Shown here: positions 34,101 to 64,000 of the stretch, one piece after another
How positions within the stretch are numbered: position 1 is the first letter of the stretch
How the letters are laid out: the number at the start of each line of letters is the position of its first letter
Assembly (NCBI GenBank): GCA_004431415.1
Contig: QPMI01000003.1
Coordinates: forward strand, 168,791 to 232,790
Length of the DNA stretch: 64,000 bases
From: Cyanophora paradoxa CCMP329
Taxonomy: Eukaryota; Plantae; Glaucophyta
Direction of reading: 5' to 3'
Program-made: the position numbers and the translations under genes
The notes under the pieces: model-generated
What the model was told of the DNA's origin: nothing
The model's database searches: none
Seen by the model: only the letters and a program-made list of their open reading frames with translations

Positions 34101-34114
34101 TGTCTTTGCCTTGA
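28101..34114 (+). CDS. pol: Pol polyprotein (protease, RT, RNase H, integrase with GPY/F module)
   Basis: ALIDSGA; SPWAFPVV..KKDG..RFCVDYR; YLDD; QTDAC..TDH..ADVISR; integrase H..H..YWP..C..C, WQMD, CDQG, LER. Frame is open from 28101. The terminal GPYIV...VHVSRLRPF lies in a shifted frame (33944-34114) after an A-run. Confidence 0.93.
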
Positions 34115-34155
34115 GGCGTACCCGGTTTGCTTTTTAAGCGTCGAGGTCGACGCTT

Positions 34156-34169
34156 GGTGGAGGCCGGCA
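34156..34169 (+). other. Putative polypurine tract of the Gypsy element
   Basis: Purine-rich GGTGGAGGCCGGCA immediately 5' of the 3' LTR. Confidence 0.55.
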
Positions 34170-35128
34170 TGTTAAGGCCGTATGGCCGTACCCGGTTTGC
34201 TTTTTCGACTGAATATTATAATTTAGTCATTCTAGCCGCACTCGTGTAAATGTCAGGCCCCGTAGTCCCCGGACATCCGGCGGGACGGCCTGAGTGTCGC
34301 AGCTGTGCGGCGTCGGACCGGAGTCTGGTCGGTCGGCTGCAGCGGCATGCCAGTAGGGCGCGCTTGAGCACGGATCTATAAGCGGTCGAGCTCAAGACGG
34401 CTAGACGTATTTATCATTACGAGCCGAGTGGGCTCGAGCCGGCTCGTGGTTCAAGCCGGCTCGGGGCCCCTCGGACCTGGCGTCGGTTCCGGGTCGAGTA
34501 ATTAAGCAACTGACAGCGGGCATGGGCCGGCTACAGTCTGGCGCATGCTACGTGATATAGCCGCGGACTCAGACCTAGCTGACTACCAGCCTAGTACCAG
34601 GACACGTGAGTGGAACCGCGTCGCCGGTTGACCGACGGCCGGTAACCATTGGTCGGAAGGTTGGTAGTATGGCGGCGCCGGGTAAAAGGAGGCGGTACCC
34701 GTCTGGATTGCGATCCGAGTCTCTAAAACTCGGTAATTCGGCCAGGAAGCGCATTCTTGAAGCTCGCCTAATCGCTGCAGCATCGCAGCGAAGCTAGGCG
34801 CCGTCGGCCTTCCTACCTGACACGCTTCACGTTCATCTGGTGCCTGAACCTGATTCTTACGACCCCTTCCCCTGATTCATGTAAAGCTTTGCACTGATCA
34901 AAACCCGCGTTCTAGACCCAAAATGTCAGACTCCAAGGGATCTGCTGTCAATAACAAGACTCCGCCCTTTGCGTCCGACTTCCCTGGCTTGGTTGGGAAG
35001 CACGGCCATAACTGGGACGGGCAGTTCGCCGCTCTTGGGAAGCCTGAGGTTGGTCTTTTGTTCTTAATTGTGGGATTCCCGGGATAGTTCAGGAGCCTTG
35101 ATCCGAAGAGGTTCTAGTCACCTTTTCA
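34170..35128 (+). repeat. 3' LTR (959 bp)
   Basis: Direct repeat of 24618-25575. Confidence 0.96.
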
Positions 35129-36726: not shown

Positions 36727-38220
36727 ATGAAGACCGTCCTCGCTTTGAGTGGTGGAGGGTCGCGTGGAATAATCGAGGCTGCTATACTGGCACAGATTGA
36801 AGCCCAAACCGGTAAACGAATCCAACAGCTATTCGACTGCTTTGCGGGAACATCCACAGGTGGATTAATCGCGCTCCTATTGAATATCAAGGGAACCGAT
36901 GGCGCCCCTAAATATACTGCCACTGATATTCTGGCGCTCTACAAAGCGAAGCTGCCGCTGATTTTCGCGAATCCACGAGTGCTTACATCGATTGTACAGC
37001 GCCCAAAGTACGAAGCAACTAACTTAGAAGCTGTGGCTCTGGAACTCTGCGGCTCAGCGACCATGGCGGATCTCTACAAACCCACCATAGTAACTGCGTT
37101 CGACACGGTTCAAATGTCCCCCGTTTTTATTTCAAGCAACGATGAAGATATTAATGGGATGCTTGTGCGCGATGCTGCAAGGGCTACCTCGGCTGCGCCC
37201 ACCTATTTCGAGCCGAAACAAGTCACAGTCGCCGGGAGAACATATTGTTTAATCGATGGTTGCATGAGCGGAAATAATTCGCCCGGGGTTTGTGGTTACA
37301 CATTCGCCCGCACTTTATTCGGAAACTCTTGCGAGGAGGAGCTTATCGTGGTCTCGATTACGGCGGGTCACGTCCAAGACTCTGATAAGGCGACATCTGG
37401 ATATTCGTACGACACTATGAAAAATTGGGGGATCGTGCAATGGATGCTAAGCGCCACAGGATCGCCAATTCTCAGCATGTTCTTAGAGTCGAGTGATCTA
37501 AACGCCCACGTAAAGCTACTGGAACTTTTACCCAGAAACGATGATCAGAATTACGATCGCTACTATAAGCTGAGCGTTCCTTTACCGAAAGATAAAATGA
37601 CCCTCGATACTATCACAACGACGCACTTGCAATATTTAGAAACGGAAGCGCTCGCGTTTGTTTCCGCACAGCAAACGTATTTTAATGCGATGTATTCAGT
37701 GCTGACGATGAATATATCAGAGGGAGACGTTCCCATTATTAATCTGTCCGGGTGCACAGATGTAAGTGTACCCCCGGAGTCTAACTGGGTGCCGCTCGAT
37801 AATAGCGCCTTTATTGCGGAATTTGGCACAGCTTCTGATGCCCGCTGGTCAAATGCTACGGGGTGGGTGGGATTTACCAACCCGCCGCAAGGTAGTAGGT
37901 CGGGAGGCAATTATTTACGCATTGATTTTCCGCGTCTGTTTATGCTTTCCTCTATAAAAATGAAGCCGGCTGCGAATGGAAACTACATTAAAACGTTTGA
38001 GATCGATTACCAATTAACTCCGGGAGTTTCTGCGCTTGTCACATACACAGAAGCCGGCGCGACGAGAGTGTTTACCAATGCAAATCAAATAGCCGGAAGT
38101 GTAGAGCCCGACGAACATTTCTTAGCGAACCCGAGATCTGTGAGAACCCTCGTAATCTGGGTGCTCACGACGAACGTAGCTTCGGCATGCCGAATTGATT
38201 TCGAGGGCTACTACGTGTGA
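36727..38220 (+). CDS. Patatin-like phospholipase fused to a C-terminal discoidin/F5-8C-like domain
   Basis: LSGGGSRG oxyanion loop, GTSTG nucleophile, ATSAAPTYF, IDG catalytic Asp; C-terminal W.G...YLRIDF...YIKTFEIDY...RIDFEG pattern of F5/8 type C folds. Confidence 0.88.
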   Translation: MKTVLALSGGGSRGIIEAAILAQIEAQTGKRIQQLFDCFAGTSTGGLIALLLNIKGTDGAPKYTATDILALYKAKLPLIFANPRVLTSIVQRPKYEATNLEAVALELCGSATMADLYKPTIVTAFDTVQMSPVFISSNDEDINGMLVRDAARATSAAPTYFEPKQVTVAGRTYCLIDGCMSGNNSPGVCGYTFARTLFGNSCEEELIVVSITAGHVQDSDKATSGYSYDTMKNWGIVQWMLSATGSPILSMFLESSDLNAHVKLLELLPRNDDQNYDRYYKLSVPLPKDKMTLDTITTTHLQYLETEALAFVSAQQTYFNAMYSVLTMNISEGDVPIINLSGCTDVSVPPESNWVPLDNSAFIAEFGTASDARWSNATGWVGFTNPPQGSRSGGNYLRIDFPRLFMLSSIKMKPAANGNYIKTFEIDYQLTPGVSALVTYTEAGATRVFTNANQIAGSVEPDEHFLANPRSVRTLVIWVLTTNVASACRIDFEGYYV

Positions 38221-38227
38221 ACAGCGC

Positions 38228-39073
38228 TTAATCCGTGATCACTTCCAGCTGAAACGAGTATGAGAGACCGTTTATATCTGCAACAGATCCCCGCCATTTT
38301 CGAAGCGAAATTGTGAGACGATCTAAATCGAGTTGCGATGTGACATTTACGAAAGGGATGCTTGCGCTCGGTTCGTGGTAAAAGGAATATCTACCAAAGT
38401 CCGAGTTCATCTGAATTCGCAATAGATAGGAGTCGTCGAAATTGTTCTGTCTCCCAGTAACCGCTGCGAATTTGGTAAACGGGCGGAGCTCTTCGATATC
38501 AAGGTAAATATATGGAATTGCATTAAAGTCGACCATTTTCGGGCATATAATCGCGTAGCGACTGGGGTAATCTCTGAGTGGAACCGGCACTGGTTCTGGT
38601 GTGCTGGCGTAAACCACTCCGGGTTCTATGCCGAGACAGTCACAGAACTCCTGGTCTGAGGACTCTAATGTAAAAGGGCTATTCGGAGATGAGAACACGA
38701 AGCGGTTCGTAGAGAGAGCGAGAGAATAGGAGACCGGGAAGAGACCGAGTGGATTAAAAGAACCGCCCGCAAATCCGAGTAAAGCATCACTGTTTAGAGC
38801 TCTCTCTTTCGGATATCGTTCGTTATCAGCATCGACGTAATAATAATCGTTTACGCTGGGAATCGGTGCTATCATTTTGGATGCGGGGATTACTGTGGGC
38901 TCTTCGTTCAAAAACGTTATAGTTATTGTCTGATCGGGCGGAACAACATAAGAGCTATTGGGAATCTCAGCGGATAGCACACGAAATCGTCGTACATTAT
39001 TAAGGCGCGTTTTCAAGTGCAGCACGCCGTTTTCAAGGTCTCTACTGTCGCAATTTATTGTTATTCTTTTCAT
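38228..39073 (-). CDS. Minor capsid (penton) protein 1
   Basis: ITINCDSRD...LNNVRRFRVLSAEIPNSSY, YIYLDI, LDRLTISLR..G...DING.SYSFQLEV: single-jelly-roll penton signature of PLVs/NCLDVs. Confidence 0.82.
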   Translation of the reverse strand: MKRITINCDSRDLENGVLHLKTRLNNVRRFRVLSAEIPNSSYVVPPDQTITITFLNEEPTVIPASKMIAPIPSVNDYYYVDADNERYPKERALNSDALLGFAGGSFNPLGLFPVSYSLALSTNRFVFSSPNSPFTLESSDQEFCDCLGIEPGVVYASTPEPVPVPLRDYPSRYAIICPKMVDFNAIPYIYLDIEELRPFTKFAAVTGRQNNFDDSYLLRIQMNSDFGRYSFYHEPSASIPFVNVTSQLDLDRLTISLRKWRGSVADINGLSYSFQLEVITD

Positions 39074-39089
39074 AATCTATTATAGTAAG

Positions 39090-40016
39090 ATGAAAGAATA
39101 CCTGAGCTTTTCGAGCGATGATCGCGACGAGGAGTTTACACAGCCAAACCAGTATGTAGTGACATTACCCCGTCGCTATGACAACGTAAAATCGGTGCGC
39201 CTGGTGCAGGCAACGGTTCCCAATGTTCTTTCGACCGTGACAAATGATATAGACGCCACTGGTGCAACCATCGAGCGCATGGAACTCTATTTCTCGGTCA
39301 CAGCTTCGGATTCCGGATTCGTGACCATCACAATCCCCAAAGGATTTTACACCAAAGACGACCTTGCCGCAAAAGTCACAGAAAGACTCGAAGCAGCTCG
39401 CCTTTCAGATTTCGGTGGAAAATATATTAAATGCCGCTATAATACTACTTCAAAGATCTATGAGTTTTTCAGTGATAGTAACTTTTGGTTCAAGTTCTCC
39501 AAAGCTTCCCCTGAAACACTCAGAAAATCCAGTAACCGCAAAGCAATCGCTAAGAAACTCGCAATATTCGGTTTCAAAGATATTCAGCTATATGTTTACG
39601 AGACATTTACCCCTCTTGCAAGCGATACATTCCTTGTGTTTAATCCTGGGACGGGAACTGTGACACTCAATCGACGCATTCGCGGCTATACTCGTGGAGA
39701 TGAGACCCCGGCGGCGATGATCTGGCTATATATTGACGAATTTGCGCCGTTTATTCGCTCAGTCAACAAGCACGTCGATGGTTATTTCATGCGCATTCCA
39801 ATCCCACAGGAACTCGAACATGGTGATATCTACCACTTCGACACGTCCACTACGGTGCCTCTCATTCGTGAATTCCGCGAATTAAAATCGTTCGACCGCT
39901 TGACGATTAAACTCATCGACCATGATGGCGCTCTCTTAGATTTCGGGGTTTGGGCGCATTATTTCACTTTTGAAATCGAAACCTACGACGCACCGCCCGA
40001 AATGAATTTCTACTAA
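39090..40016 (+). CDS. Minor capsid (penton) protein 2
   Basis: LSFSSDDRD...PNQYVVTLPRRYDNVKSVRLVQATVPN, IWLYID, FDRLTIKLIDHDG.LLDFG..HYFTFEI; ATG at 39090. Confidence 0.82.
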   Translation: MKEYLSFSSDDRDEEFTQPNQYVVTLPRRYDNVKSVRLVQATVPNVLSTVTNDIDATGATIERMELYFSVTASDSGFVTITIPKGFYTKDDLAAKVTERLEAARLSDFGGKYIKCRYNTTSKIYEFFSDSNFWFKFSKASPETLRKSSNRKAIAKKLAIFGFKDIQLYVYETFTPLASDTFLVFNPGTGTVTLNRRIRGYTRGDETPAAMIWLYIDEFAPFIRSVNKHVDGYFMRIPIPQELEHGDIYHFDTSTTVPLIREFRELKSFDRLTIKLIDHDGALLDFGVWAHYFTFEIETYDAPPEMNFY

Positions 40017-40063: not shown

Positions 40064-41376
40064 ATGGAGACTAACAGCCAATTCCAGCGCCCAACGCTGA
40101 AATCTATGCTCACCACCGATGACTACAAGGATTATTTCCTAAACAAGTCGCTGGTCATTGGAACGTCCTCTGGCACTAAGCCACTTCGAGTTCTGGTCGC
40201 CCCGATACCGAACCAACCAATGCCCTCGGTAACCGAGTAGTTTTCAAAATCCCCCGCTACCATTTCCTGAATGGTCTCGCGCTGCAACTCGATCTAAACC
40301 CGATCACCCTCACTGATCTCACGAATGGTGTCGCTGGAACTACTGGCTACCTTCGCGTCATTGGATCGCTGATTAAGCGCATCGAAATCTCTCACGCTTC
40401 ATTCCGCTATGTTGTACCGGAAGATTTCGTCACCCAGTATTTTCTACTGATGACTGAACAGGGCGAACTCGATAAGAAACTTCGCTATGTCGGTGGTCTT
40501 GTCGGAACCGCTGGTAACACTGTCGGTGGAACCTACGAAATCGATTTACCCTCTCCTTTCGAGAAGGCGATGTTCCCACTTTGCGCTCTGAACTCTGAGA
40601 TCACAGTGGAAATCGAATTCAAGGCGCAAGGGGATGGTATCATTGAGGATGTGAATAATGTTGCTAATATTGCGGTAACCAACAATGGCGCTTCCCTTCA
40701 AGTGCTGAAACCCCGCGTTATTTGCAAGGTTGTAAACGCCGATGAGGCGGTTGTATCGGAGACCATTGCCCGTGTTAAATCGACTGGCATCGCGATCCCC
40801 TACAACGAAATCGGTTTCCTACACACAGATTTCCAGCCGACCGCCTCCGGTTCGCGAGTCAATCTCTCGCAACTCACAGGTGCGGGTCTCATCCACACTC
40901 TCGTATTCTCTGTGCGCCAAAACGCGAAGACGAAGGTTAACAACGGAACTCTCTCGGTTCTGGCTCCTCGTGCACTCAGAACCAACGCCGTAAGCTTCTA
41001 TGTGGAACTCAACAATAACCGCCTTTACTCAAATACTTCGCTTCCTCTCATGATTGCCGCGACCGAACTTCAAGATAAATATAATTCGGCGATCTTTACC
41101 GAGAGCACAAGCTACCCCGCTCTCACTGGCATTTACTTCGGTGCTGGAAACGGAAAGGCGTCGCTTCTAAACCAAGAGAACACGGGCTACATCGATGCCA
41201 CAGGCACATCGGCGTTCGATCTGGTCTTCGAATTCAACGGTGTCACAACGGCAGCCGAAGGTTCATCAGAATGGTATGCATCATCGGCATATCAGAAGAT
41301 GCAAATTCAGTGCATTGCCCTCGCCCACAACATCATGATAATTTCCGCCGACGGAATCCGAAGAGTATCCGCATGA
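40064..41376 (+). CDS. Major capsid protein (double-jelly-roll type, about 437 aa; one frameshift in a C-run near 40200)
   Basis: ATG at 40064; adding one C gives LVAPDTEPTNALGNRVVFKIPRYHFLNGLALQLDL, continuous with ORF 40450-41376 (FPLCALNSEITVEIEF). Beta-strand-rich; lies between the pentons and the ATPase. Confidence 0.75.
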
Positions 41377-42483: not shown

Positions 42484-43350
42484 ATGCAAAAAGGGACGAC
42501 GCCCATGGATCTCGAAGAATGGAACCCGAAACAGAGGGTGAAACTTCCCGCACGATTTCTCCTATTGGCGAAAACCAATTGTGGTAAATCGGTTTTCTTA
42601 AAGTGGCTGATCAAAGAACTCGAAGATCAGATCTCGTATGTTCTGGTTTTCTGTCCTACGAGTTTCAACGGTTTCTGGGGACAAATTACAGACGAAGTGC
42701 ATGACACCTGGAAACCGGAATATGTAGAGTCGATCATAGAAGCCCGCAAAAAAGCCATCATCGCGGGTAAGAAACCAAAGAATATTCTCATCGTACTCGA
42801 CGATTGTTTGGAGTCCGGAACTATCGATCTTTCGCGCGATCATTTGCTAAATAAATTGATGGCGCAAGGTCGTCATACGTTTTGTTCCGTGGCGCTAATA
42901 TCGCAGAAACTAACAAAGCTTTCAACGATCATTCGCAGCAATGCGGAGTATATCATATTCCTCAGCTGGTCAAACATGCGAGAGTTTGAAGCATATCACG
43001 AAGAGTTCGGGAACATGGATAAAGAGAGTTTCAAGCGCATGTTCCAAGAATTCTGTCATAGCTACCAAGCGATCATTCACGATAATACCGGGTATTCTGT
43101 GCGATGGTGGGTCGAAAAAGCCGATATGATCGATGACCATCCGTTTACTAAATTCCACAAGCGGGCGGCTTTTGAAGAAAAGAAGCGCAAACAACAAGAA
43201 GAGCAAGCAACAAAACCGCCGCCTGTCAAAGATTCGACAACTGTATGCAAAACTTTATCCAAATTTGAGCGTGAGCTTGAAGGTATCCCCAAACTTTCCC
43301 AAATTTCGCCTAAGAAAAAGAAAATGTTAATCAAATGTAAGAGAAGATAA
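42484..43350 (+). CDS. A32/FtsK-HerA-like genome packaging ATPase
   Basis: Walker A AKTNCGKS, Walker B ILIVLDDC, QGRH and ISQ motifs, IIRSNAEY. Confidence 0.9.
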   Translation: MQKGTTPMDLEEWNPKQRVKLPARFLLLAKTNCGKSVFLKWLIKELEDQISYVLVFCPTSFNGFWGQITDEVHDTWKPEYVESIIEARKKAIIAGKKPKNILIVLDDCLESGTIDLSRDHLLNKLMAQGRHTFCSVALISQKLTKLSTIIRSNAEYIIFLSWSNMREFEAYHEEFGNMDKESFKRMFQEFCHSYQAIIHDNTGYSVRWWVEKADMIDDHPFTKFHKRAAFEEKKRKQQEEQATKPPPVKDSTTVCKTLSKFERELEGIPKLSQISPKKKKMLIKCKRR

Positions 43351-44235: not shown

Positions 44236-44631
44236 ATGAACTTTATCAGTCAGTGCATTGAAATGTTTCAGCTTCATGTAGTGTCTAATTGCCACAGCCC
44301 TTGCTGTGACACGACCGTAGAAATTGAAATATCGGATGGCGAAGACAATGGGGGTCGTCGCTTATCTGTTATTTCGAACACTGACACGAACGCCCCGCCA
44401 AGATCGCGAAGGGGGTCGCCTGTGCCCGCGGCTATGAGTTCCAATATCGAATCCGCTCAGATAGAGGACGTAAACGTAGAGTATATTAGAAGGCGCTCAT
44501 GTCCTGAGATATTGGGTGGGCATTTTCGCGCTGATTCCCCTTATCCGATGCTCACCCTCGATGGAATGGCTTCGGGCAACGATGGAAATTACGAATACGT
44601 GGAGCCGCAACCTGTCTGGAACGATTATTAA
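44236..44631 (+). CDS. Small Cys-cluster protein (paralog of 58223-58486)
   Basis: MNFISQCIEMFQLHVVSNCHSPCCDTTVEIEISD aligns with MDLLRKCMDMFHLNVTSKLNCSCCETTINLEISD. Confidence 0.7.
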   Translation: MNFISQCIEMFQLHVVSNCHSPCCDTTVEIEISDGEDNGGRRLSVISNTDTNAPPRSRRGSPVPAAMSSNIESAQIEDVNVEYIRRRSCPEILGGHFRADSPYPMLTLDGMASGNDGNYEYVEPQPVWNDY

Positions 44632-50252: not shown

Positions 50253-53200
50253 ATGCCGCGCGCAACCAACAGAATCGCTAACAATGTTCGGGACGAAATT
50301 ATCGGATACATTATGCAGGGATTGAGTCAGGATTTGCTAACCGAAGAACAGGCGCATTGGGCGATGCACAACACAATGAATCGGAAGCCCAAGCTCCAAA
50401 CGCTGATAGATATTCGGGATACTCTGAATGGAATCATTAATCCCCGCGTTTTCCGCAGGGCAGAGCGGAAAGAGAAGCGCGCCGCTCGCACCCAAGTAAA
50501 TATAGAAAAGCAAAAGCAAAAAGAACAAGAGGCTAAGCGTTTACAGCGTTTCGATCGCAAGCAAGAAAAGAAGCGGGCGAAAGAAGCGAAGCTTGAAGCG
50601 AAGCAACAGAAAGGCAAACTAAAAGCGGTAGAGGATGCGATTAAACGCACTATTCTCGATCCAATCGCCCAATATGATCCGGAAACTCTCGCGACAGTTA
50701 CGTTCAAGATGTGGGCACCTGGATCCGGTGCTCGGTCTTCGGAGGTAATTGTTATTCCCGGAATTCCCGAATTAAATATACCAGACAGTTCCTTTGTCAC
50801 CTACCGCAATATAAGAGAGACAGTTTCGGTGAGTGTGTTGCGAAGCTTTGCTCTGGCGAAAATGGATAGAATGTCTCAAATTCTAATTAGACCGGGTCAA
50901 GTTCGTCATGATTGGCATGAGAGCGAATCAATCTTCTATTTACTCAAAAACTACGATGAATTGGCAGTAGGACTTAAAACTTTCGGCGAAGCATACGAGG
51001 TGTTCTTCTTTAAGACACCACCAACCGAGGAACAGAAAAGACTACGCCTAATGTTTGATGATTTTGGCGGCAGTATCGATGATGCCTTTATAACTGTTCA
51101 TGAGGTCGCGATCGATGGGGACGAAGGTGTCGAGGACGATGGAGCCGGTGCTATTCCTGGAAATCGCTATGAGTTCCTGGATGAGGAGCTAATGGACAGC
51201 ATGCGATGCACCGCGATTATGAGCAAATTCACAGACTACACATTAAATCCAAACGCGTCTGAGTTCGAAGATGTTATTGAGCTTCCCAAATCATCGACAT
51301 CTAACGCTTGCGGCTATGATATGATCATCTCCACATGGGGAGCGTCCATTAAAAAGTGTCAGGAGGCGCCGAAACCGCGATATACTGACTTTACTATGTC
51401 ATACGACGGTCTCTATAAATTCTTTCACGGTCGCGAACGCACACCTGGCGACTCTCTGGCTCTCACCCTCCGCCATATTGAGAAATTCTGTCAGAGAATT
51501 CAGACAGGCTTCCGCGTCTTTGATGTCGACGGAAAGTTAATATACAAATTCGTGGCAGAATCGATTAACAAAAACATCTTTCCCCGCAATATTCACTTTA
51601 TGATTCACAACAAGCATATCTATATATTCAACGATAACATCAAGTCGCTCGAAATGCGCATGGCGAAGATGGAGGTCGAAGAGCTTGACTGTCATGTTCC
51701 CAAGTCGACCTCATCGTTAGCACTCTACAAAATTCCGACTTGTCTGACTCACGATATCTTTGCGCACACATCCAAGGATTTGTTAAAGATCACGCAATTA
51801 AAACTATCGCCCGACGAGCGCAGTTTCATCCGCATTCTTTATACTGGGCGCGAAGGTCTGGAAGGTCTTCTATTTACGTTCCTGAAAATGCGATATGAGC
51901 CCGCTGTGAAGCTAACACCATCGAAGCAGATCGACAGCATCACATTCAAAGCTAATGGCTCGATGTTCTCTATCAAAGACCCACGCACAACCGACCACTT
52001 CATTGAGCAAGATTTCGAAACAGAGGAGTATTATAATAAGGTCTGTGAAATCGGTAAGGGGTTCCGGGAGTCGCTTCTAAATCCGACGAATATCTCACAT
52101 TACAGCCCGAACATGCGCGAAATTCTCACGCACTACAAGCGATCCGCACTAAGCGGCTTTTTCTATAAGCCGAACCCGAAAGCCACCTACACAGCTGTCG
52201 ATATGGCGAAGTGCTACCCTTCGATACTGAAAGGCATGCAATATCTTCCGAAATACAATGTGTTTGATGACTTCGTTCCCTTTAAAGCGGGAAGCGATAT
52301 TCTCGAATACGCGATCTACTACGTGCGTGTCGTTGCGTTTGAGAGAGAGCAAGCGACTTTCGCCGACGATGAGGATGTAGATTATGATGCCGCCATGTCT
52401 CGCAAGATTGATGGAATCGAAATTATTCTGGATCGCGCATTTTCCGTGAGTGGTCGTTGCTATAATTTCATGACAGGCTACACTCTCGCCATGCATTGGG
52501 CGGACGTAAAGGACAAGATAGAGATCATTGCGGTCGCGGAGCCTTCGCATTTGGTGCCCAATACGTCGATCGCTGAGATGAAGAAAGTACTTTCAAGTGA
52601 CATTCAAACCACGGACAAGAAACACATTTTAGTGAAAGAGATCGGAATGCTCGGCAAATTCCAAGACTTGCAAACGTCCACGAAAATGTTCTACAACCGT
52701 GCCGAAGCTGAGAGGTTCGCCAAAGAATGCGGAGGAACAGTGGAGGTGTTTACTTTCAATCCGAAGAATTCGAAACGTGTCAAAGCACTTAGCGAATTCG
52801 AAGGTCACATCTATTTTGTTAAGATCAGCTCTCACCGCGAGCTTGTTAACGGATTCCTTCCTATCCACTTTCAAATTTACGATCGCAACCGCGCTAATAT
52901 GTTTGCGCAATACAAGCGCCTGACAGCGCGCGGGCACAAGGTTGCGGGGATCAGAACGGACTGTCTATATATCGAAGGTTCATGGACGAGTAAAAAAGAG
53001 TTCGACCGAAATGCGTTTGAGAACATGGGCAAATTCAGCTATATTCCCGGGAAAAGATGCCCTGAAAACGCACTACGCCCGCCAAGGGGTGTAACTCTCG
53101 AATTTCAGGATCCCGATACGCTAATTAACCGGTTCTCGCTAAGGGATGAATTTAATCCTGAGTGCTTTAATCGGGTTGCGGAGCTTCATAATCGTATGCT

Positions 53201-54569
53201 TGTCCTTGCTGACATGCCCGGAAGTGGAAAGTCGACCCTCGGTATTAATTGCTTCGCCTCTCAGAAGTCGAATTGCTTAATTATCTGTCCCTATAACAAA
53301 CAGTGCGCAGAGCTTAGGGACTCTCTCAAAGCCCGCGGCATTGAGAATATCGTCGTTCGTACTTTGTATAATGTTCTCGGGATCCGTGTCTCAAATGATC
53401 AGACCTACGAAGAGGCTATGAGCGAAAAAGATCAGAGGGCGTTCGTCTCTGAGTTCAGCCATATAATGTTCGACGAGATATTCGCGTATTCCGTAAAGGA
53501 TCTCGCTAAGATCAAGACTTTCATAGACCGCTATCCGGATATCAAATATTTGGCTAATGGCGATACCTATCAAAACGAACCAATTAATGACGATCTCTCG
53601 GTTTCTGATCGCAAGGGCTACTATAAGCGCGCCGTGCAAAGCATGTTCCCTAACGTTCTGAGTCTACGCATTAACAAGCGGCACAAGAAGGAGACAGACC
53701 GTGAATTAATTCGGGCGATTAAAGAGGATCTCTTCGAAAACGGACTCGAAGCCGCTCAGATTATCTCGAAATATGGGTTGCCGACAATTAATGATCTAAG
53801 CGCTATTCCCGACGGCTACTTTGGCATCGCTTACAGAAACGAAATGACCTTAGCCTATAACAAACTGATGCACGATAGACGAAAAGTAAATATCGCAACC
53901 GTAGAGGTCAATGGCATCAAATTCTACAAGGGTTTGGAAGTCGTTTGTCGCAGGTATATGCGCATTTCGCGATCCGAAGGCGAGTCTGTTAATGCATACA
54001 CGAATTACACCTACCGGATCACCAAAATCACTAAGCAAATGGTCACATTAACTGACGTTTTCGATGGCGTCACGTTCGAGGTTCCGTGTGCGATGTTAGA
54101 ACATTTTTCTCTCCCTTATGCAGGAACAGGTCATTCAACGCAAGGTCTCACACTTGATTCGGGCATTGTCATTTGTGAGGCTACGTTCCGCTATACCACT
54201 CGCGAATGGTTCTATACCGCGCTCACTCGTAACCGCGATCTGTCTACTGTGCTGATTTATACACCGATTCACAAGTTCCAAGGAAAGCACGACTATATTG
54301 AATATCTGAAAGTGAAGATCCGCGGCTATAAATGTCAGGATCAGCGTGCCGGGCGCGATTTCGACGAAGCGGATTATATTACGCCGGAGTGGATATTAGA
54401 GCGCAAGAAGCAACAGAAGGGCGCCTGTGCGATCTGTTCCCTTCCTATTCCCACTGAGCCACAGGATCCGAATTACAAGCTCGTCGTGGATCGCATAAAC
54501 AACAGGCGCCCACACCTTAAAGACAATTGTCAGCTCGTGCATCACGGGTGCAATTGCAGCAAAAAATAA
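50253..54569 (+). CDS. Replication protein: derived family-B polymerase domain + SF1 helicase + C-terminal HNH/EndoVII-like zinc module
   Basis: PolB-like motifs VDMAKCYPSIL, KHILVKEIGMLGK, IRTDCLY. SF1 motifs DMPGSGKST, FDEI, GDTYQNEP, NKR, YAGTGHSTQGLT, YTALTR. C-terminus CAIC...VDRINNRRPHLKDNCQLVHHGCN. Confidence 0.85.
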   Translation: MPRATNRIANNVRDEIIGYIMQGLSQDLLTEEQAHWAMHNTMNRKPKLQTLIDIRDTLNGIINPRVFRRAERKEKRAARTQVNIEKQKQKEQEAKRLQRFDRKQEKKRAKEAKLEAKQQKGKLKAVEDAIKRTILDPIAQYDPETLATVTFKMWAPGSGARSSEVIVIPGIPELNIPDSSFVTYRNIRETVSVSVLRSFALAKMDRMSQILIRPGQVRHDWHESESIFYLLKNYDELAVGLKTFGEAYEVFFFKTPPTEEQKRLRLMFDDFGGSIDDAFITVHEVAIDGDEGVEDDGAGAIPGNRYEFLDEELMDSMRCTAIMSKFTDYTLNPNASEFEDVIELPKSSTSNACGYDMIISTWGASIKKCQEAPKPRYTDFTMSYDGLYKFFHGRERTPGDSLALTLRHIEKFCQRIQTGFRVFDVDGKLIYKFVAESINKNIFPRNIHFMIHNKHIYIFNDNIKSLEMRMAKMEVEELDCHVPKSTSSLALYKIPTCLTHDIFAHTSKDLLKITQLKLSPDERSFIRILYTGREGLEGLLFTFLKMRYEPAVKLTPSKQIDSITFKANGSMFSIKDPRTTDHFIEQDFETEEYYNKVCEIGKGFRESLLNPTNISHYSPNMREILTHYKRSALSGFFYKPNPKATYTAVDMAKCYPSILKGMQYLPKYNVFDDFVPFKAGSDILEYAIYYVRVVAFEREQATFADDEDVDYDAAMSRKIDGIEIILDRAFSVSGRCYNFMTGYTLAMHWADVKDKIEIIAVAEPSHLVPNTSIAEMKKVLSSDIQTTDKKHILVKEIGMLGKFQDLQTSTKMFYNRAEAERFAKECGGTVEVFTFNPKNSKRVKALSEFEGHIYFVKISSHRELVNGFLPIHFQIYDRNRANMFAQYKRLTARGHKVAGIRTDCLYIEGSWTSKKEFDRNAFENMGKFSYIPGKRCPENALRPPRGVTLEFQDPDTLINRFSLRDEFNPECFNRVAELHNRMLVLADMPGSGKSTLGINCFASQKSNCLIICPYNKQCAELRDSLKARGIENIVVRTLYNVLGIRVSNDQTYEEAMSEKDQRAFVSEFSHIMFDEIFAYSVKDLAKIKTFIDRYPDIKYLANGDTYQNEPINDDLSVSDRKGYYKRAVQSMFPNVLSLRINKRHKKETDRELIRAIKEDLFENGLEAAQIISKYGLPTINDLSAIPDGYFGIAYRNEMTLAYNKLMHDRRKVNIATVEVNGIKFYKGLEVVCRRYMRISRSEGESVNAYTNYTYRITKITKQMVTLTDVFDGVTFEVPCAMLEHFSLPYAGTGHSTQGLTLDSGIVICEATFRYTTREWFYTALTRNRDLSTVLIYTPIHKFQGKHDYIEYLKVKIRGYKCQDQRAGRDFDEADYITPEWILERKKQQKGACAICSLPIPTEPQDPNYKLVVDRINNRRPHLKDNCQLVHHGCNCSKK

Positions 54570-54587: not shown

Positions 54588-55969
54588 ATGTCACGGATCG
54601 TCAGAAGGGTAGCGGGTGAGGAGACAGAGACTACCATACTCCCTATTGCGGTTCCTGAAACTGAGCTAATCCCCAAAAAATTACAAAACGCCAAGCAAAA
54701 TCAAATTTATTAGGAGATGTTACTTTTAGCATTGCTAACCCGTCCTCTAAGATCGTGCGACGCATGTATGACCCAAAGACAGGTTTTAAGAACCCATCGG
54801 CATTGTACGAAGAGCTGAGAAAAGAGGACAAGAGCCTCACACTGAAAGAAGTGCAAGATGTCGCAGCGAAACAAGAATTTATGCAGATCAACAAGAAGCC
54901 CCCCGCACCAACCCAAACCGCTTTTATTCCCATCACAGCCCCGCCGTGGTGTTACCAAGCGGATCTCATTTTTTATCTCTCATATGGCAATTATAATTCC
55001 GGCTACATTGCAGTCCTTACTCTCATCGAGATGACAAGCCGAAAAGCATATGCCAAGAAGTTAAAGAATAAGGAGGGCGCAAGTGTTGCCGCCGCTTTTG
55101 CGGAGATGCTCACAGAGCTCCCGGCTCCGATGATTCGATTGGAGACAGATAACGGTTCTGAATTCATCGCAAAGGAGTTTCAGGAGGTCGTCAAAAGCAA
55201 TGGAATAGAGCATCGCTTCAAGCAGGTCGGAGATCACACTTCGCTGGGAATTATGAATCGCTTTCATTTGACCCTAAAAACGATGATAAACAATTACTGT
55301 GTCGCATATAATACAGTGCGGTTCATGGACAAGCTGGACGACTTCGTTTTCAATTATAACAACACCGTTCACAGAACAATAGGAATGAAGCCCGCAGATG
55401 TTAAGCTCTCAGATATGGAGCGGATCCGCGCGGCTATTATTTCGAGAAAGAATACGATCGTCAAGGATATATTCAGCGACTTTAAACCGGGGCTCCACGT
55501 CCGCGTATTGTTGCCAAGATCAAAGTTCGATAAAGGAGCGACTCAAAGGTACAGCCGAGAGGTCTACAAAATTGCGGGAAGGAGAGGAAACGCGATAGAG
55601 GTGCAAGATGCAGCCGGGAACCTAATGCCGAAGCTTTTTAAACCGCACGAATTGCAGATCATTACAGAGGTCGAGGCTGTGGTGGAACCATCAGGCAACG
55701 CAATCAAAGCAGCCGAAATAGAAGCCGCTTCTATCCGGCAGGTTCAAAAAGAAGGCATAGATGTCGCCGCAAGTGTTCCGAAAGGGGCTCTATTGGAAGA
55801 TCGCGCGGAGAAGACGAAGAGGGCGCTTAGAGAGCTTGCAAAACTCACGATCGCGGGAACTGAGAAGCTCTCTGAGGTAAACAGTCAGCGGTGGTATAAA
55901 TCATTCAAGAATCAGAGCGCAAGCTATACAGCCCCTACTACGCGCATTCTTCGGTCATCTCGTTCATAA
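54588..55969 (+). CDS. Polinton-type retroviral-like (rve) integrase
   Basis: YQADL, LIEMTSRKAY, TDNGSEF, GIMNRFHLTLK, YNNTVHRTIGMKP, FDKG...YSREVYKI. Likely ATG at 54588 with one missing A in the run near 54675. Confidence 0.88.
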
Positions 55970-56737: not shown

Positions 56738-57190
56738 TATTATTTAAGTCGATATTTTTGTGAGCTATGAGCTGTGTGTGCTTTTGTAGCGCCAAATCGC
56801 GCCCTTTGCGAATCCGACCGCGCCGCTTTGTAACAGTGTAGAACTACTCTATACCCACACGGATGCAAAGTATGACTAGTGGAGCCTCATGGGAACGCGC
56901 GCCGGCGCTCAGAATGTAGCGGACACCTCGGTTTTCGGGCACTTGTGCAGAAATCGACGCCGGTCTTTGCTCCACGGTGGGCTAAGCTAGTCAAAGCATA
57001 ACCATCATGCCCGGAAGCAAGTTATGAGCACGTAGCAATTGAGAGCGCGCCGAGATCAGCTTCCTGTCCAAAGTTATGCGGGGAAAACGGAAGGGGGGGT
57101 CGCCGCCGAGTCGCGATCGCCAACATTTGACGGCGGCTATTATACTTCTAACTGAGCATTTGAAAGGTATAACAGACCTACTGTAAGGCT

Positions 57191-57398
57191 TAGTTTCGGC
57201 GTAATGTCGGCTGACAGGGTGATAGTTTCGGCGTAATGTCGGCTGACAGGGTGATAGTTTCGGCGTAATGTCGGCTGACAGGGTGATAGTTTCGGCGTAA
57301 TGTCGGCTGACAGGGTGATAGTTTCGGCGTAATGTCGGCTGACAGGGTGATAGTTTCGGCGTAATGTCGGCTGACAGGGTGATAGTTTCGGCGTAATG
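57191..57398. repeat. Perfect 32-bp tandem repeat, 6.5 copies
   Basis: Unit TAGTTTCGGCGTAATGTCGGCTGACAGGGTGA at 57191, 57223, 57255, 57287, 57319, 57351, and partial at 57383; no spacers. Confidence 0.97.
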
Positions 57399-57419
57399 AA
57401 AAAACGAGAGAGAGCCCAC

Positions 57420-58130
57420 CACGGTGGCCCACCGGAAACTGCCACCCCCATCCCCTAGCACCTCTCTCGCTGCACCAGTCGTAACGTCTACCCCGCTATC
57501 CTCCGACATCGCTCTATCGTTACGTCTAGCACCACCCGAGCAACGTCTACAGTTCTATTACGAAGGTGGAAGCCAAGCAATATCTAATGACTATACAAGG
57601 CAGAGCTGACAACTAGAATAGACGAAGAGGCCGCGCGGTGGTGTCTCTAGCGTTTTTTTCAGAATAGTCTAGACGATATTGCTGTGTACAGAGAAGCGGT
57701 GGCCCACGGGAAACCGCCACCACCATCCCCTCACAACCTCTCTCGCGGCCACCGCGGTGGTGTCTCTCGCGTTTTTTTCCGCGTTGATGTCCGATACTAT
57801 GGGAGACAGACGTTAAGGTGTAAGCCTAGCAATATCTGACGACTATACAAGGCAGAGGAGACAACAAGAATAGGCGAAGAGGAGCGCTGCCCCCATGAGC
57901 GCGGTCTGCAGAGCAACGTGGCAGAATAGTCTAGACGATATTAATGTGTACAATGAAGCTATCAGAGGAAACACGTTTAGGTTAATTTTAGGCGATATAG
58001 ATGAGTACGATGAAGCTAACAGAGGAAGCACGTTTAGGTTAATTTTAGGCGAAATGATGAGAACATTGAAGCAACCAGAGGAAAAGCGTTTAGCTCTATC
58101 TAGGCGATAATGATGAGTACATTGAAGCAC
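57420..58130. repeat. Mosaic of interleaved imperfect direct repeats (20-55 bp)
   Basis: Pairs at about 57422/57698, 57576/57828, 57631/57752, 57660/57922, 57949/58006 and 58052/58109. Confidence 0.8.
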
Positions 58131-58222: not shown

Positions 58223-58486
58223 TCAGCGGCTTTGGGATATTTGGGGGAGGCCAAGACAATCTTCGGCCTTCAGCATCAAGCCAAGGTACAGGTGAATCAG
58301 TTCGAGTAAATGGAGAATTGGACCTAGAAGTCCTGGTGTGTTAATAGGCGAAACCTGAGTTTCTGGGGTGCGAGAGCCTTCTGTGTCTGATATTTCGAGA
58401 TTAATGGTCGTCTCACAGCAACTACAATTCAATTTGCTGGTGACGTTGAGATGGAACATATCCATACATTTTCGAAGCAAATCCAT
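58223..58486 (-). CDS. Small Cys-cluster protein (homolog of 44236-44631); 3' end uncertain
   Basis: Shared N-terminal C..MF.L.V.S....CC.TT...EISD. Confidence 0.65.
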   Translation of the reverse strand: MDLLRKCMDMFHLNVTSKLNCSCCETTINLEISDTEGSRTPETQVSPINTPGLLGPILHLLELIHLYLGLMLKAEDCLGLPQISQSR

Positions 58487-58761: not shown

Positions 58762-59343
58762 CTACTTGACAGAGTGCATAAATATCTGGAGGATATCAAC
58801 AATTACCTTATAATGATCACCAATTTCAACCAGAGAATCAACTACTGATGTCTGTTCATTTACAACAATGGGGAATATCTTGATTATATAGGGGGCATTC
58901 ATACCGGGGACATAGGTGCGAATCCGCGTCAGATTGTCGATCGGGTTTGGCGTGTCGTTCACGAAGAGAGGAGCTCCGATTGTTCCCCCAACTCGAAGAC
59001 CATCACCAATATATGCGCCGCCATTTCGACAGTTAATAGCTCCAGAACGAGATTCAAAAGAGTAAGTCGAAAGAGGATCGCCGTAACTGTCTGGATCACC
59101 GTAGTGTGAGCTGAAATTTGCATTTGTTACTAGCAACTTGGTAGTTTTAACCACACCATTATTTTTATCACATCTGAGTTCCTGCAATCTAAGTTTATGT
59201 GTAGATCCGAAGGTGTTTAATGTCGGTTGTACCTCTGTTGATTGCAGACCTTCCACATCGTCAAAAGTAGCATGTTGTAGAACGTGGTTTGCAGGAGCCG
59301 CGAGCGAAAGTTGTGCCGTAACAATACGCTCAATTTCAGCCAT
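58762..59343 (-). CDS. Fibre-family protein with conserved N-terminal module; C-terminus possibly frameshifted
   Basis: LRLQELRCDKNNGVVKTTKLLVTN...GGAYIGDG shared with the other fibre genes. Confidence 0.7.
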   Translation of the reverse strand: MAEIERIVTAQLSLAAPANHVLQHATFDDVEGLQSTEVQPTLNTFGSTHKLRLQELRCDKNNGVVKTTKLLVTNANFSSHYGDPDSYGDPLSTYSFESRSGAINCRNGGAYIGDGLRVGGTIGAPLFVNDTPNPIDNLTRIRTYVPGMNAPYIIKIFPIVVNEQTSVVDSLVEIGDHYKVIVDILQIFMHSVK

Positions 59344-59344
59344 T

Positions 59345-60211
59345 TTACATTAAAGTGATATATATTTTAAGGTGTTGGATCGTCAATAAATCTGGCTCCT
59401 GGTAAAATCCGGTTGTAAAGATATCAGCAACATTCACACCACGAAGTGCTGAAACAGCAGCTATATCTGTTCTCAGTCCAATTATCATAGTATTATAAAC
59501 TCCTACCTCAGTGACAAACAAATCATAAGTAAATGTCAAATTGTTATATACACAATATCCCCGACCGAAATGATTTGATGCTTGAACAAAGAATAGGTAA
59601 TTGTGACCTGGTTGATTGTTGTTTGCTCTGCACATCGAAAGCATTGCTGTGGAAGAGGAATATTCTCCTCACTCGATCAGTTCCTGTTATGGAAACCAAC
59701 TCCGAGTTTTCGAGGGTGACAGATGATGCAACATAGAAATGCAGGAAAGGTTGTGGCAACAGGTGTATAGAACCGAATTCGTTGTGGATTTTCAACATTT
59801 TGTTCAAGAGTATCCGGGACATCATTGTATGCAATTGATGAAGAGAGTTGACCTGAAACTCGACAGCCACCACCAATAAATGCGCCTCCTGAACGAATTG
59901 TAGCAGCGGCAGAATTCTTATCGAAATCGAGGGCTTTTAAATCCACACTGTATGCATCAGGTCCTCCATTTGTCGGTTGAAAGAAGTTAGCATTTGTCAC
60001 AAGTAGTCGAGTGGTTTTAACTACACCCGAATTCTTATCGCTCGGAGTTCTTTTACACGAATCATCGAATTTTTATCGAAAGAGTTCCGTTAGAATTTGG
60101 TCGCTCTGTGGATTCTAACCGCGGACTTCATCATTTACTTCATGTTGTCGAAAGTGCATCGCTGGTGATCCAAGCGAATAAATGGTATTGCACACGATTA
60201 TATTCGCCCAT
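59345..60211 (-). pseudogene. Fibre-family protein, multiple frameshifts
   Basis: IRVKELR.DKNSGVVKTTRLLVTNANF...GGAFIGGG across fragments 59677-60000 and 59345-59644; ATG at 60211. Confidence 0.62.
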
Positions 60212-60244
60212 TGCTTCTTTACTAAGAAGAAAGAAAAATAATGT

Positions 60245-60508
60245 TCATTGTTCTTCTGTGACAATATTATACTCGATCGCTTTTTTCACAGTCCCCTTTG
60301 GAATGCCTGTAAAACAATAGCTTCCTTTGAGGTTGTATCTGAAAGCCTGTTGATATACATGAATGGATCTCTTTCTGAACAATCTCATCAATTGCATTCT
60401 TGCCCTGTTGTGGGCAGCATTATCAATCCAATCCTGAACAGATGCAGCGCAATATTCCATTCCCAACTTTTCGGTATCAGTTAGAACTACTTGGTAAATA
60501 TTTGACAT
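60245..60508 (-). CDS. Small fibre-associated protein (homolog of 19441-19704), frameshifted in its 3' half
   Basis: First 38 aa nearly identical to 19441-19704. Confidence 0.75.
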   Translation of the reverse strand: MSNIYQVVLTDTEKLGMEYCAASVQDWIDNAAHNRARMQLMRLFRKRSIHVYQQAFRYNLKGSYCFTGIPKGTVKKAIEYNIVTEEQ

Positions 60509-60529
60509 TCTTACTCTATCAAAAGAAAA

Positions 60530-61518
60530 TTATGTAATACTTATCAACTCTCCACAAAAGGTAGTTCCAGAGGAATATGTCCCTGGTTTGTTGTCAAATA
60601 GTTACATATTCGTTGGCTGCAAGATTGAGAATGCAGGACATTTGAAGAGGTCTGACTATTAATGTGCCTGTGCTGGAAGCAGAAAGAGAAATGCCCCAGG
60701 ATCGGCATCATTCAATTTGAAGAAAGCTGAATTGGGTATTGTGTTGTTGAGTTGGTAAAAACTGAGAATCGATAATGTCCAGCAACAGGAGCTGTAAATC
60801 TTCCTGATGATCCAGTGAAGATCCTGTTACATTAACAAGATTGGTTGCCCAATTAATGAGAGCGGTCGAAGAAGTTGCAGTGTGATTATATCCCAATCGG
60901 AAGCAGAACTTGGTTGGAGCTGTTCTTTAAATAACACCTGTATTAATTGTTAATGAATTGGCTTCAAGTGTTGCGATGGTATTGCTATTTCGCTTCAACA
61001 CAAGATTAACATTGCCCTGTATCAATTCAGAGTAACTAATTGTTGTTGCAGTAATGGTGGGTTGAGAGTTGGTTGCTACTGAGACTCCACCATTTGCTGT
61101 AACCATTCCTGTAAAAGTGGTTGTCCCTGTCACAGCAAGTGAGTTGCTGTAAGAGTCCCATCAACACTTGCCCCATCTCCAATGTGGCTCCTCCACTTCT
61201 ACTACAAGAGAGTTATTAATGGTTTGTCAAAAGTAGTAATTTTGGGTGTGGTGAACCCTCACATCATCATAAATTGCTGAATCTGATACATCGATCCCGA
61301 TTGGACTTGGTTCTATTTGACACAATTAAACCAGTGTTCTCACCTTTCCATTATTGCGATCACATCGTACCTCTTTGCATCTGATCACAGAATTTGAGAA
61401 AATGAATCAGCTCCTGTGGATTCTGTGCAAATAACCAGGGTTGCATCTGTCACTGTGTGGTGAGTTGATGCAATTTGGGGTGCATAACAGAAAACAGAAC
61501 AGCAATCTGTGTAGACAT
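60530..61518 (-). pseudogene. C1q-head fibre protein, heavily frameshifted
   Basis: DNA is similar to 61540-62609 at the 5' end (KEVRCDRNNG); fragments FTAPVAG, ILNLAANEYV, TFCGELISIT*. Confidence 0.62.
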
Positions 61519-61539
61519 CTTTACTTTAAAGTAACAATA

Positions 61540-62609
61540 TTATGTGGCGCTAATCAGCATTCCTCCAAAGTGCGATCGATTGGTGTATACGATGCAGCAG
61601 TGGAATTATTGTATATTCGTATCCAATCATTTGCAGCAAGGTTGATGATGCATTCATATGATATAGGTAATAGTGACATTGAGGAAGCAAAAGTTGCTCT
61701 TGCCTCATATTCTGATGTTGTTCCATTTTTTCGAAGATTCAGAACAATCTCAGATGCAGTAGTGGTTGAGATTATCACTTGGAAACAGAAGTAATAATTT
61801 CCTGCAACAGGAGCCGTAAAATTCCCTAATGTTGAACCATTGAAGTTGTTTCCATGGTTGATAAGAACTCCTGAAAATAGAATATTTGTTCCAGTTGCTC
61901 TTGAAACTGTTGATTCTGCTGCATTTGGAGCCATAACAGAAGCCATAAAACGAGGGCAACCATTTCGTTTCAGATAGCTACCTGATGAAAATACGATTGC
62001 CTCTCTATTTGATGGTGTTGTTTGAATATTTTGTAATGTCACAATTGCGCTTCCATTTCGTTTGTAAATAAAGTTGGTATCTGCAATTGTGTCACTCTCA
62101 GGAGTTGTTAATCTTGTTGACAGTGTGAGAGTTCCATACTGAATACTTCCTGATAGACCACCATTTAAGTTCATCAACCCTGAAAATGAACTTGTCCCAC
62201 TCACATTCAATTGATTTGCTGTAACAGTCCCCACCACAATTGCTCCATCACCAATGTAGGCTCCTCCACTTTTAACTACAAGAGCAGAAGTATTACTTGT
62301 GTTACCAAAAGTAACTATCTGAGCTGTGGTGAACCCACCCACATTATCATATATTGCTGAATCGGGAACAACTTGACCGGCTTGAACCTGATTTTTATTC
62401 GAGATTATAATACCTGTGGTTCTTATCTTGCCTCCATTTCGATCACATCTAATCTCTTTAACTCTGAGTATATTATTCTCTGTGAAAGAGGTATTGCTTG
62501 AAGTTTCAGTGCAAATATTTCCGGGTGTAGAGTCGACTACTTCATGAGAGGTGCTATGGAGTGATTTGGCTGCAAGTTCATAGTTTGGGATTTCTAATAG
62601 AGAGGTCAT
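61540..62609 (-). CDS. Fibre/spike protein with C-terminal C1q-like domain
   Basis: ATG at 62609; LRVKEIRCDRNGG...GGAYIGDG; PRFMA...NHGNNFN...FTAPVAGNYYF...IINLAANDWI. Adding one T gives the terminal TFGGMLISAT*. Confidence 0.78.
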
Positions 62610-62628: not shown

Positions 62629-64000
62629 TTAAATTGCGACAGCAATGTAATGGATTGTTACAGTAATGCCTGGTCTGTCAAAAGAACTTAATGGAACTAT
62701 GTCAAGCTCACAAGTGAAATAGCTACTGTAAACTTGTTTAAGCCTAACATACATTCGGTAGTAGTAGGCTGTCTCATTGTGTTGTATACCGGTTGTTACA
62801 ATAGGAGGGTTAGCAAAGCTGCTGTTGAAATTAATAGTGAGGTTAAACCTATGGTCAGGGTTTGCCCAAAGATAAGGAGTAGTGTAAACATACGTTCCTG
62901 CTTGAATTTTCCCATTAAAATATGCATTAAGTTGACTGGTAAGATCTGCTTCTGTTAAACATCTACTAATAGTAGCATTATTGGAAGGGTTCATAGCATA
63001 GAAATTTCTTGCATAAGCATTTCCACGAACAAGTAAGGTTTTATCATAATAATTCTGCGAATTGTGGAAGAACCATGTTTCATCAAACATAGGTCCTGCT
63101 GGTTCTACTATCTGACCCGATCCTACATACATTGTGTTGTTGGCTCTAATAGTGGTTGCTGTAAAGGGATCAAGAGTTGGTCTATTGGTCAGGTCATTGT
63201 AGTTGCCCGAGAAAATCGCTGGTTTGTTATAAATATCTGTATTCCAATCATGAGTGTGTGCAAAATCTGTAATCTCTGCCTTTGTGTGATTGTGGGCAAA
63301 ATCTGTAATCTCAGCCTTTGTGTGATTGTGTGCAAAATCTGTAATCTCTGATTTTACATGATTGTGAGCAAAATTCGTAATATCTGCTCGGGTGTGAAAG
63401 TGTGCAAAATCTGTAATTTGCGATTTTGTGTGAGTATGTGCGAAATCTATGATTTCTGCCTTTGTGTGGGTGTGTGATCTATTATTAAGGTCGAGGAAGC
63501 TACCGGAAAATGCAACAGGGTGTAGATTTGCTGGGGTGGGTTTGTTTATGAGATCATTATAATCTCCTGTGAATGAAATAGTTTTTAGTTCACCCCTTCC
63601 TACATAATCAGAAGGTAAATCAATTTTCATAGGCATAATAGCAGGATCAATAGGAATCTCGTACTCAGCTCCTGGGTGAACCACAGGGAAGGTTTGATTA
63701 CTTTCAGTGTGAACAAAAAAGTTGTCAGCAGTCACTGTTCCGTCAATAGTTCCTCCTGTCAAGGGCAGGTAATTCCCTGTCACAGCTAGACCTGCAATAA
63801 CTATAGCAAGCTCTGTTTCATCTACATAGTTTTGGGCTTGAAGGTAATCCTCTGTTACCACTCTTGATATGGTCTCATTGTGAATATTCTTTGCTGCTGC
63901 CCTCTGATTGATTTCTAAGACACCTTCACCCACTCCACCATTATAATTCGTTTTTATCCATGATATCTCGCATCTCTTGTAATCATCTCGATTTCCAATT
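62629..64000 (-). CDS. Tail-fibre-like protein (5' end outside window) with His-repeat shaft and lectin-like tip
   Basis: Frame open to the window edge; TGDYNDLINKP, repeated HTHTKAEITDFA, C-terminal FNSSFANPPIVTTG...IHYIAV; counterpart of 20769-22413. Confidence 0.8.
   Translation of the reverse strand, partial: IGNRDDYKRCEISWIKTNYNGGVGEGVLEINQRAAAKNIHNETISRVVTEDYLQAQNYVDETELAIVIAGLAVTGNYLPLTGGTIDGTVTADNFFVHTESNQTFPVVHPGAEYEIPIDPAIMPMKIDLPSDYVGRGELKTISFTGDYNDLINKPTPANLHPVAFSGSFLDLNNRSHTHTKAEIIDFAHTHTKSQITDFAHFHTRADITNFAHNHVKSEITDFAHNHTKAEITDFAHNHTKAEITDFAHTHDWNTDIYNKPAIFSGNYNDLTNRPTLDPFTATTIRANNTMYVGSGQIVEPAGPMFDETWFFHNSQNYYDKTLLVRGNAYARNFYAMNPSNNATISRCLTEADLTSQLNAYFNGKIQAGTYVYTTPYLWANPDHRFNLTINFNSSFANPPIVTTGIQHNETAYYYRMYVRLKQVYSSYFTCELDIVPLSSFDRPGITVTIHYIAVAI
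63245..63478 (-). repeat. 36-bp coding repeat (H.H.K.EITDFA, about 6-7 copies)
   Basis: gcaaaatctgtaat recurs at 36-bp spacing; resembles the phage tail repeat. Confidence 0.88.

Follow-up and report, generated by a model that had tools for sequence, protein, structure and literature searches.

T-even tail fibers reportedly swap their adhesin on a conserved N-terminal anchor. The adenovirus fiber is made of a tail, a shaft, and a knob seated on the penton base, with a short tail peptide and a variable distal knob. T7-like tail fibers have the layout of a conserved N-terminal anchor, a shaft, and a tip, and among marine phages the N-termini are conserved while the tips vary, such that C1q tips under-recruit and N-termini do not (PMC3909814). 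C1q variants have been reported at 54 to 69% nucleotide identity (PMC7468147). The fibers of polinton-like viruses (PLVs) are described as phage-derived, modular, and presumably penton-attached (PMC12220804; Ltf of Gezel-14T, 10.1101/2022.07.28.501842). PTR + H-lectin and patatin + discoidin designs are reported from glaucophyte PLVs (PMC12220804), and patatin-discoidin-type fusions from both glaucophyte and rhizarian PLVs. The virophage DSLV2 has heterotrimeric tail proteins that bind Synechococcus LPS (PMC12724248). Further background is given by PMC8502044 and 10.1101/2025.10.09.676808. How PLVs attach to cells or to helper viruses is largely an open question.

Here, we describe an N-terminal module that heads fiber-like genes of PLV elements integrated in the glaucophyte Cyanophora paradoxa CCMP329. 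The window is the whole stretch analyzed, 64,000 nucleotides of contig QPMI01000003.1. Its genes have the same anchor-shaft-tip layout as T-even and T7-like fibers, with exchange at conserved motifs, but the anchor has no sequence match to any phage anchor family, and its Atlas neighbors score at most 0.86. The likeness to the adenovirus fiber lies in a related virus kingdom with pentons and a variable distal knob. However, the adenovirus tail is a short peptide, whereas the module here spans about 125 aa and occurs in several paralogs, and a PDB profile search found no sequence similarity between the two. The C1q proteins of marine and glacial phages, putative receptor-binding proteins (PMC3909814, PMC7468147, phrog_15750), have the same tip family, a conserved N-terminus with a variable C1q, and the same small downstream gene as gene V1 of the window. 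These phage proteins lack the N-terminal module, and here the carrier is a tailless PLV in a eukaryotic genome. As in DSLV2, tandem fiber paralogs related to cyanophage proteins are carried by a small algal dsDNA virus, but the DSLV2 tails combine a phage collar domain and a gp37-like tip in one heterotrimer (PMC12724248); no collar domain is seen here.

Two other window genes, 62629-63999 and 36727-38220, resemble the PTR + H-lectin and patatin + discoidin designs of glaucophyte PLVs (PMC12220804); the second joins a patatin to a C-terminal domain that is discoidin-like by eye and has no Pfam match. Unlike the genes described here, the PLV fibers in the available parts of the published reports have no C1q tip, no common N-terminal module, and no exchange between near-identical anchors, and the term “c1q” had no match in two text supplements of PMC12220804. 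Searches of titles and abstracts, mostly of open literature, for C1q with PLV, virophage, or polinton and for PLV fiber variation or shuffling found no description of the module. The principle is known from phage fibers; the module and its use in PLVs are, as far as we found in print, new.

Two integrated elements and their fiber genes

Up to about 18.6 kb, the window is GC-rich eukaryotic DNA. Element 1 follows at lower GC, from about 18.7 to 58 kb, and element 2 begins at about 58.5 kb and runs past the window end. Element 1 encodes an A32/FtsK-type packaging ATPase (Pox_A32, E = 1.7e-10, 42484-43350), an rve integrase (E = 9e-14, 54764-55969), and, as a replication gene, an SF1 helicase within 50253-54569. 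Two penton-like paralogs are 29% identical over 94 aa (E = 1e-7), and a profile of both matches the single jelly-roll penton entry PDB 6ncl_a6 “P1” (E = 2.8e-6), which we take to be the PBCV-1 penton chain. A candidate double jelly-roll major capsid protein (40066-41376, one frame break) was chosen by position and size, and it has no match in Pfam, PHROG, or PDB. From this gene content, we identify element 1 as a PLV. No terminal inverted repeats were found in the window, in which the limits of the elements are uncertain and element 2 is incomplete. A related-locus search for relatives of the element 1 ATPase gave nothing.

The genes discussed below are as follows.

20747-19713, minus strand: gene V1 of element 1, intact; anchor aa 1-126, stalk, C1q tip aa 217-340
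19441-19704, minus strand: small partner gene of element 1, 87 aa, 8 nt behind V1
38228-40016, divergent, back to back: the two penton-like paralogs of element 1, candidate docking partners
62629-63999, minus strand: upstream neighbor in element 2, a repeat fiber with an H-type lectin-like tip, cut by the window end
62609-61554, minus strand: gene A; anchor aa 1-131 (~62609-62215), stalk, C1q tip aa 235-335
~61518-60530, minus strand: gene B, a frame-broken tandem paralog of A; anchor, stalk, C1q tip
60245-60508, minus strand: small partner gene of element 2 behind the C1q genes, a homolog of 19441-19704; second half frame-broken
~60211-59345, minus strand: gene C, frame-broken; anchor that groups with the D type, non-C1q tail
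59343-58524, minus strand: gene D; anchor, conserved non-C1q tail; open to 58762, then broken

The first-pass annotation had placed four genes with a common front end at 58762-62609. The module does head four genes there, but the reading frames of B and C are interrupted in this assembly, and the open frame 58762-59343 is just the first part of gene D, which extends to ~58524, beyond those bounds. The last codons of gene A are also frame-shifted in the assembly. Short-read contigs of the same organism differ from the window across B by 0 to 1 substitutions and 3 to 4 gaps, so at least some of the frame breaks are likely long-read errors. The lectin-like tip of the upstream repeat fiber (E = 1e-4) falls just below the cut-off, and this gene lacks the anchor module.

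Several other features of the two elements were observed. A young Ty3/gypsy LTR element (24618-35128; LTRs 99.8% identical, 4- to 5-bp target duplication) splits one long fiber-like gene of element 1 into 36683-35131 and 24617-22443, halves that are open on both sides of the insertion, and a LINE-like element also interrupts element 1. The product of 50253-54569 is a 1438-aa protein in which the SF1 helicase is followed by a C-terminal endonuclease VII-like part; motifs in it that, by eye, we take to be polymerase-B-like had no profile match. A 32-nt motif with the core TTATTTTCTCCGGT occurs three times between element 1 genes (44706, 50211, and 55976) and is a possible promoter or terminator. 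The small genes 44236-44631 (element 1) and 58223-58486 (element 2) are 44% identical over their first 36 residues, and a 32-nt tandem array with 57-nt repeats (57159-58130) lies between the end of the element 1 integrase and element 2. In both elements, a repeat fiber is directly upstream of the anchor genes (20769-22413 and 62629-63999). In the former, the frame 20769-21170, which opens by nearly repeating the last part of 21214-22413, may be the detached tip of that gene; short-read contigs with loose ends at 21249-21287 suggest that this tip varies too.

The N-terminal module and the heads of the window genes

Exactly five window genes (A, B, C, D, and V1) begin with a module of about 125 aa. 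An HMM built from the intact modules and run on six frames of the window found only these five places (next best, E = 7.8), and a degenerate codon pattern for the first half of the motif had three matches (A, D, and V1) compared with none in 100 shuffles. Between copies A, C, D, and V1, tblastn gave E values of 1e-8 to 1e-14; the gene B module gave 3e-15 with A, 6e-4 with V1, and 5e-3 with D, mostly weaker than the other copies. Anchor identity among the five genes is 33 to 64%, with A and B at 64% (72% at the nucleotide level over 319 nt). The module is thus significantly conserved, and the earlier claim of five genes with a common N-terminus, one in element 1 (V1) and at least four in element 2 (A, B, C, and D), is borne out. 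The proposed motif is common to all five, but the gap between its N and GGA parts comprises about 30 to 45 variable residues rather than three, and gene B has C at the position given as V or L.

The module has no match in Pfam, PHROG, or PDB; the best PDB profile match, MCM6, has an E value of only 0.011 and was taken as chance. A profile search of 1.84 billion representatives returned seven module proteins at E ≤ 0.001, five of them new. Nothing was found by a word search with the gene A module (0 of 148 candidates) or by the degenerate motif in viral, metagenome, and GTDB contigs (0 matches), and a related-locus search with the module or the D type confirmed nothing in viral or metagenome contigs. 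Neither the V1 module nor P0001, one of the environmental proteins, had a phage match; their best Atlas neighbor scores (0.86 and 0.76, respectively) are leads only. The module has so far been seen only in these PLV elements, in C. paradoxa gene models, and in a few environmental proteins.

C1q heads had been claimed for three genes, and all three hold. Those of A (E = 1.6e-10, 41.7 bits) and V1 (E = 1.2e-11, 45.4 bits) exceed the Pfam C1q cut-off of 23.7 bits, and that of B is assigned by its alignment with A only (41% over 323 columns, with X at the breaks). The C1q tips also match phrog_15750 (E = 1e-13 and 4e-10) and, in PDB, cerebellin, EMILIN-1, and C1q-like chains. The remaining two C-termini, described earlier as unrelated, are indeed unrelated to C1q, but those of C and D are probably related to each other: the C tail is collinear with the D type, has equal length, and shares a stretch after the module, although the similarity of the heads alone is not significant (z = 1.6 and 0.9). 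Gene D is 63% identical to P0001 over 273 columns with 5 breaks, and likewise 63% to P0002, both environmental proteins. D-type heads are as conserved as D-type anchors (~61 to 63% versus 64%), and the idea of variable tips does not extend to this type.

In anchor-only trees, a single branch separates the C1q genes from the C/D type (support 98/97, 90/88, and 96/93 under three X-readings of B and C); among the five window genes, the class of head changes one time. This single change indicates one old head replacement followed by later duplications. Within the window, heads therefore follow the anchor phylogeny, the very outcome that the first-pass annotation had named as refuting its proposal. 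This pattern also fits plain duplication and divergence, in which every paralog retains its own head and the C1q heads change more rapidly, without any need for exchange.

The tandem arrangement of four paralogs in element 2 and the conservation of D over its entire length could also mean that the module is an assembly adaptor and not a penton dock. A, B, C, and D would then form heterotrimers or hang on the D-type protein or on a long fiber, with branched or mixed tips, as in the heterotrimer of three consecutive virophage tail proteins in DSLV2 (PMC12724248). Against this, element 1 has one copy in the window, which would have to function alone unless other integrated copies supply paralogs, and the tips of A and V1 are single C1q domains. 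Such domains commonly homotrimerize. We regard the adaptor role as unlikely. As the best explanation of the whole, we favor, with moderate confidence, a conserved front module with exchangeable tips, likely a trimerizing base that fixes a surface fiber to the particle.

Tip exchange and variation in Cyanophora paradoxa

The cleanest swap is borne by a sister lineage and not by the window's own genes: C. paradoxa proteins whose anchors are 32 to 38% identical to the window anchors. The P0006/P0007 clusters hold 16 C. paradoxa gene models, of which three are full 400-aa proteins (P0006, P0011, and P0012), two are C1q-tipped proteins of 275 to 278 aa (P0007 and P0014), one is tail-only and lacks the module (P0010), and ten are short (P0008, P0009, P0013, and P0015-P0021). 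The short models and P0003 end in or just after the module; these and P0010 were left out of the tail comparisons. Anchors of the five long proteins are 86 to 98% identical. P0006 and P0007 share 113 of 125 anchor residues, but their tails are unrelated (z = -0.5). More generally, P0006, P0011, and P0012 compared with C1q-tipped P0014 and P0007 have anchors 86 to 95% identical and tails with z values of -0.6 to -1.0. The switch point is right after GG-x-x-x-G-G-L-x-V-x-G, the last module motif. The P0006-type tails, 97 to 98% alike, constitute a third tip that matches phrog_34132 (E = 6e-44) and Vibrio and Aeromonas phage proteins (40 to 44%). A Peptidase_G2 domain (PF11962) in this tail type is a lead only (P0010, E = 0.12, 12.2 bits versus a cut-off of 25).

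C1q tips also differ strongly among themselves: P0007 and P0014 have anchors at 87% and C1q tails 38% alike, and P0004 and P0005 have anchors at 77% and C1q tails 31% identical. Plain divergence cannot yield unrelated tails on anchors that are 90 to 95% identical. Furthermore, the P0014 anchor is nearer to those of the phage-tip proteins (94 to 95%) than to that of P0007 (87%), and monophyly of the C1q-bearing anchors (with P0003) is rejected by an AU test (P = 0.0007). On a 12-row tree, the three head classes require just two changes, the fewest possible, which indicates that head-class switches are rare. A swap from one head class to another is real but was observed a single time; C1q tips turn over often.

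Short-read variation around V1 is consistent with tip turnover. When contigs of four runs (X1, X2, X3, and X18) were aligned to 19250-22450, 12 joint rows from 11 distinct X1 contigs bridged 19590-19742 to 19990-20281 with unlike sequence between. Each links the end of V1, or the small gene, to the stalk or the beginning of the head. Ten of the 11 recur in X3 and X18 and two in X2, and in eight a matching side spans 30 letters or more. Seven leave V1 at aa 156-179 and four at aa 207 or 216, with C1q starting at 217; three exit at aa 176, and three at aa 216, immediately ahead of the C1q domain. The near side of such a contig may mark an assembly-graph branch point only. Two middles are near V1 length (357 versus 359 and 414 versus 416 letters) and one contig retains a patch of C1q core, so most of the middles are probably C1q alleles. 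Another contig, of 419 letters, equals the V1 head without difference. Joints of this kind also occur across the A and B heads. Not included in the count are two contigs with one A-like and one B-like side, which may be recombinants or third paralogs. In all four runs, summed contig depth is far lower over C1q heads than over anchors, but depth cannot rank gene parts, and this difference is given no weight here.

As the bridging contigs are known by their flanks, fast divergence and exchange are not distinguishable there. The two middles of near-V1 length are as expected of diverged alleles, and in one contig flanking stalk identity falls gradually, to ~84%. Plain divergence thus has points in its favor at V1 and in the five window genes; in the C. 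paradoxa lineage it is refuted if the gene models are real, and we consider it quite improbable overall. Still less credible is that the variety reflects decaying relics, that is, old inactive insertions under neutral mutation and recombination with no role in receptor range. The frame breaks in B, in C, and at the end of D, the young LTR and LINE-like insertions in element 1, and the shortness of many C. paradoxa models are in keeping with decay. However, the near-identical short-read contigs across B point to long-read errors, one contig is identical to the V1 head, only the tip varies and its flanks remain alignable, and the three 400-aa copies are open with near-identical tails.

A conserved N-terminal module with exchangeable C-terminal tips is found in both the C. 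paradoxa proteins and the V1 contigs, and we are highly confident that tip exchange occurs in this family. “Conserved anchor, interchangeable heads” therefore holds for the family. Duplication with head swapping, as proposed in the first-pass annotation, is upheld by the C. paradoxa relatives and the bridging contigs, but it does not follow from the five window genes alone.

A cassette shared with phages and a proposed mechanism

The product of the small gene behind V1 is 45 to 55% identical to the products of phage genes, most of which lie behind C1q-tipped genes. Together with its homolog behind B, it is 45 to 48% identical to those of two named phages, Synechococcus phage S-SRM01 and Limnohabitans phage DC33, in both of which a C1q gene is upstream. 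Homologs occur at 23 IMG/VR loci, many of them near-duplicates (8 types); three are at contig edges, leaving 20 evaluable. The upstream frame matches the window's C1q heads in 15 of these 20, is a cut C1q-like end in one, and belongs to other genes in four. All 10 representatives of the upstream phage proteins tested pass the C1q cut-off. The anchor HMM had no match better than E = 0.08 in phage loci L001-L026; phage shaft repeats weakly resemble the final motif of the module, but not significantly (E = 0.08). At four of the 20 loci, another small gene, not of C1q type, is directly upstream of the partner homolog (e.g., L002:1522-1743 and L020:5671-5964).

Judged by homology and gene order, the C1q tip and its small partner form a cassette common to tailed phages and a PLV, with phage copies lacking the anchor. 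The spread of this cassette among phages makes transfer from phage to PLV the likelier direction. In a tree of C1q heads (2 from the window and 21 from phages), one origin is neither shown nor rejected (p-AU = 0.36).

Domain order, neighbors, and phage homology indicate that these proteins are probably surface binding fibers. The ~125-residue module would act as a trimerizing base attaching the fiber to the virus particle. Its direct docking to penton or capsid is a tentative proposal, about which our doubts slightly prevail; different fibers might use different pentons of the 38228-40016 pair. AlphaFold2 monomers had pLDDT values of 34 and 37, and a fold search with the first of these low-confidence models gave no E value below 0.001. 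Tips would be gained from the phage fiber pool and re-assorted by recombination among many integrated copies, at the module end or the C1q start. The C1q tips would bind variable surface receptors, of the host alga first and possibly of helper virus or bacteria, and may thereby have a host- or helper-range role. The small gene would encode a tip-assembly partner, and the conserved D-type paralog would be a fixed structural member.

With a defined module, and a culturable alga in which matched anchors bear differing tips, attachment and specificity become directly testable. The putative two-gene receptor-binding cassette is documented in tailed bacteriophages and also in a virus of eukaryotes, where its tips vary as they do in phages. 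More speculatively, and in our view improbably, the alga genome could be a recombining library of phage-derived tips: hundreds of integrated PLVs with one docking module and shuffled tips. If so, the range of tips displayed by reactivated particles would follow shifts in giant-virus helpers or bacterial carriers, amounting to antibody-like diversification of an inducible antiviral defense.
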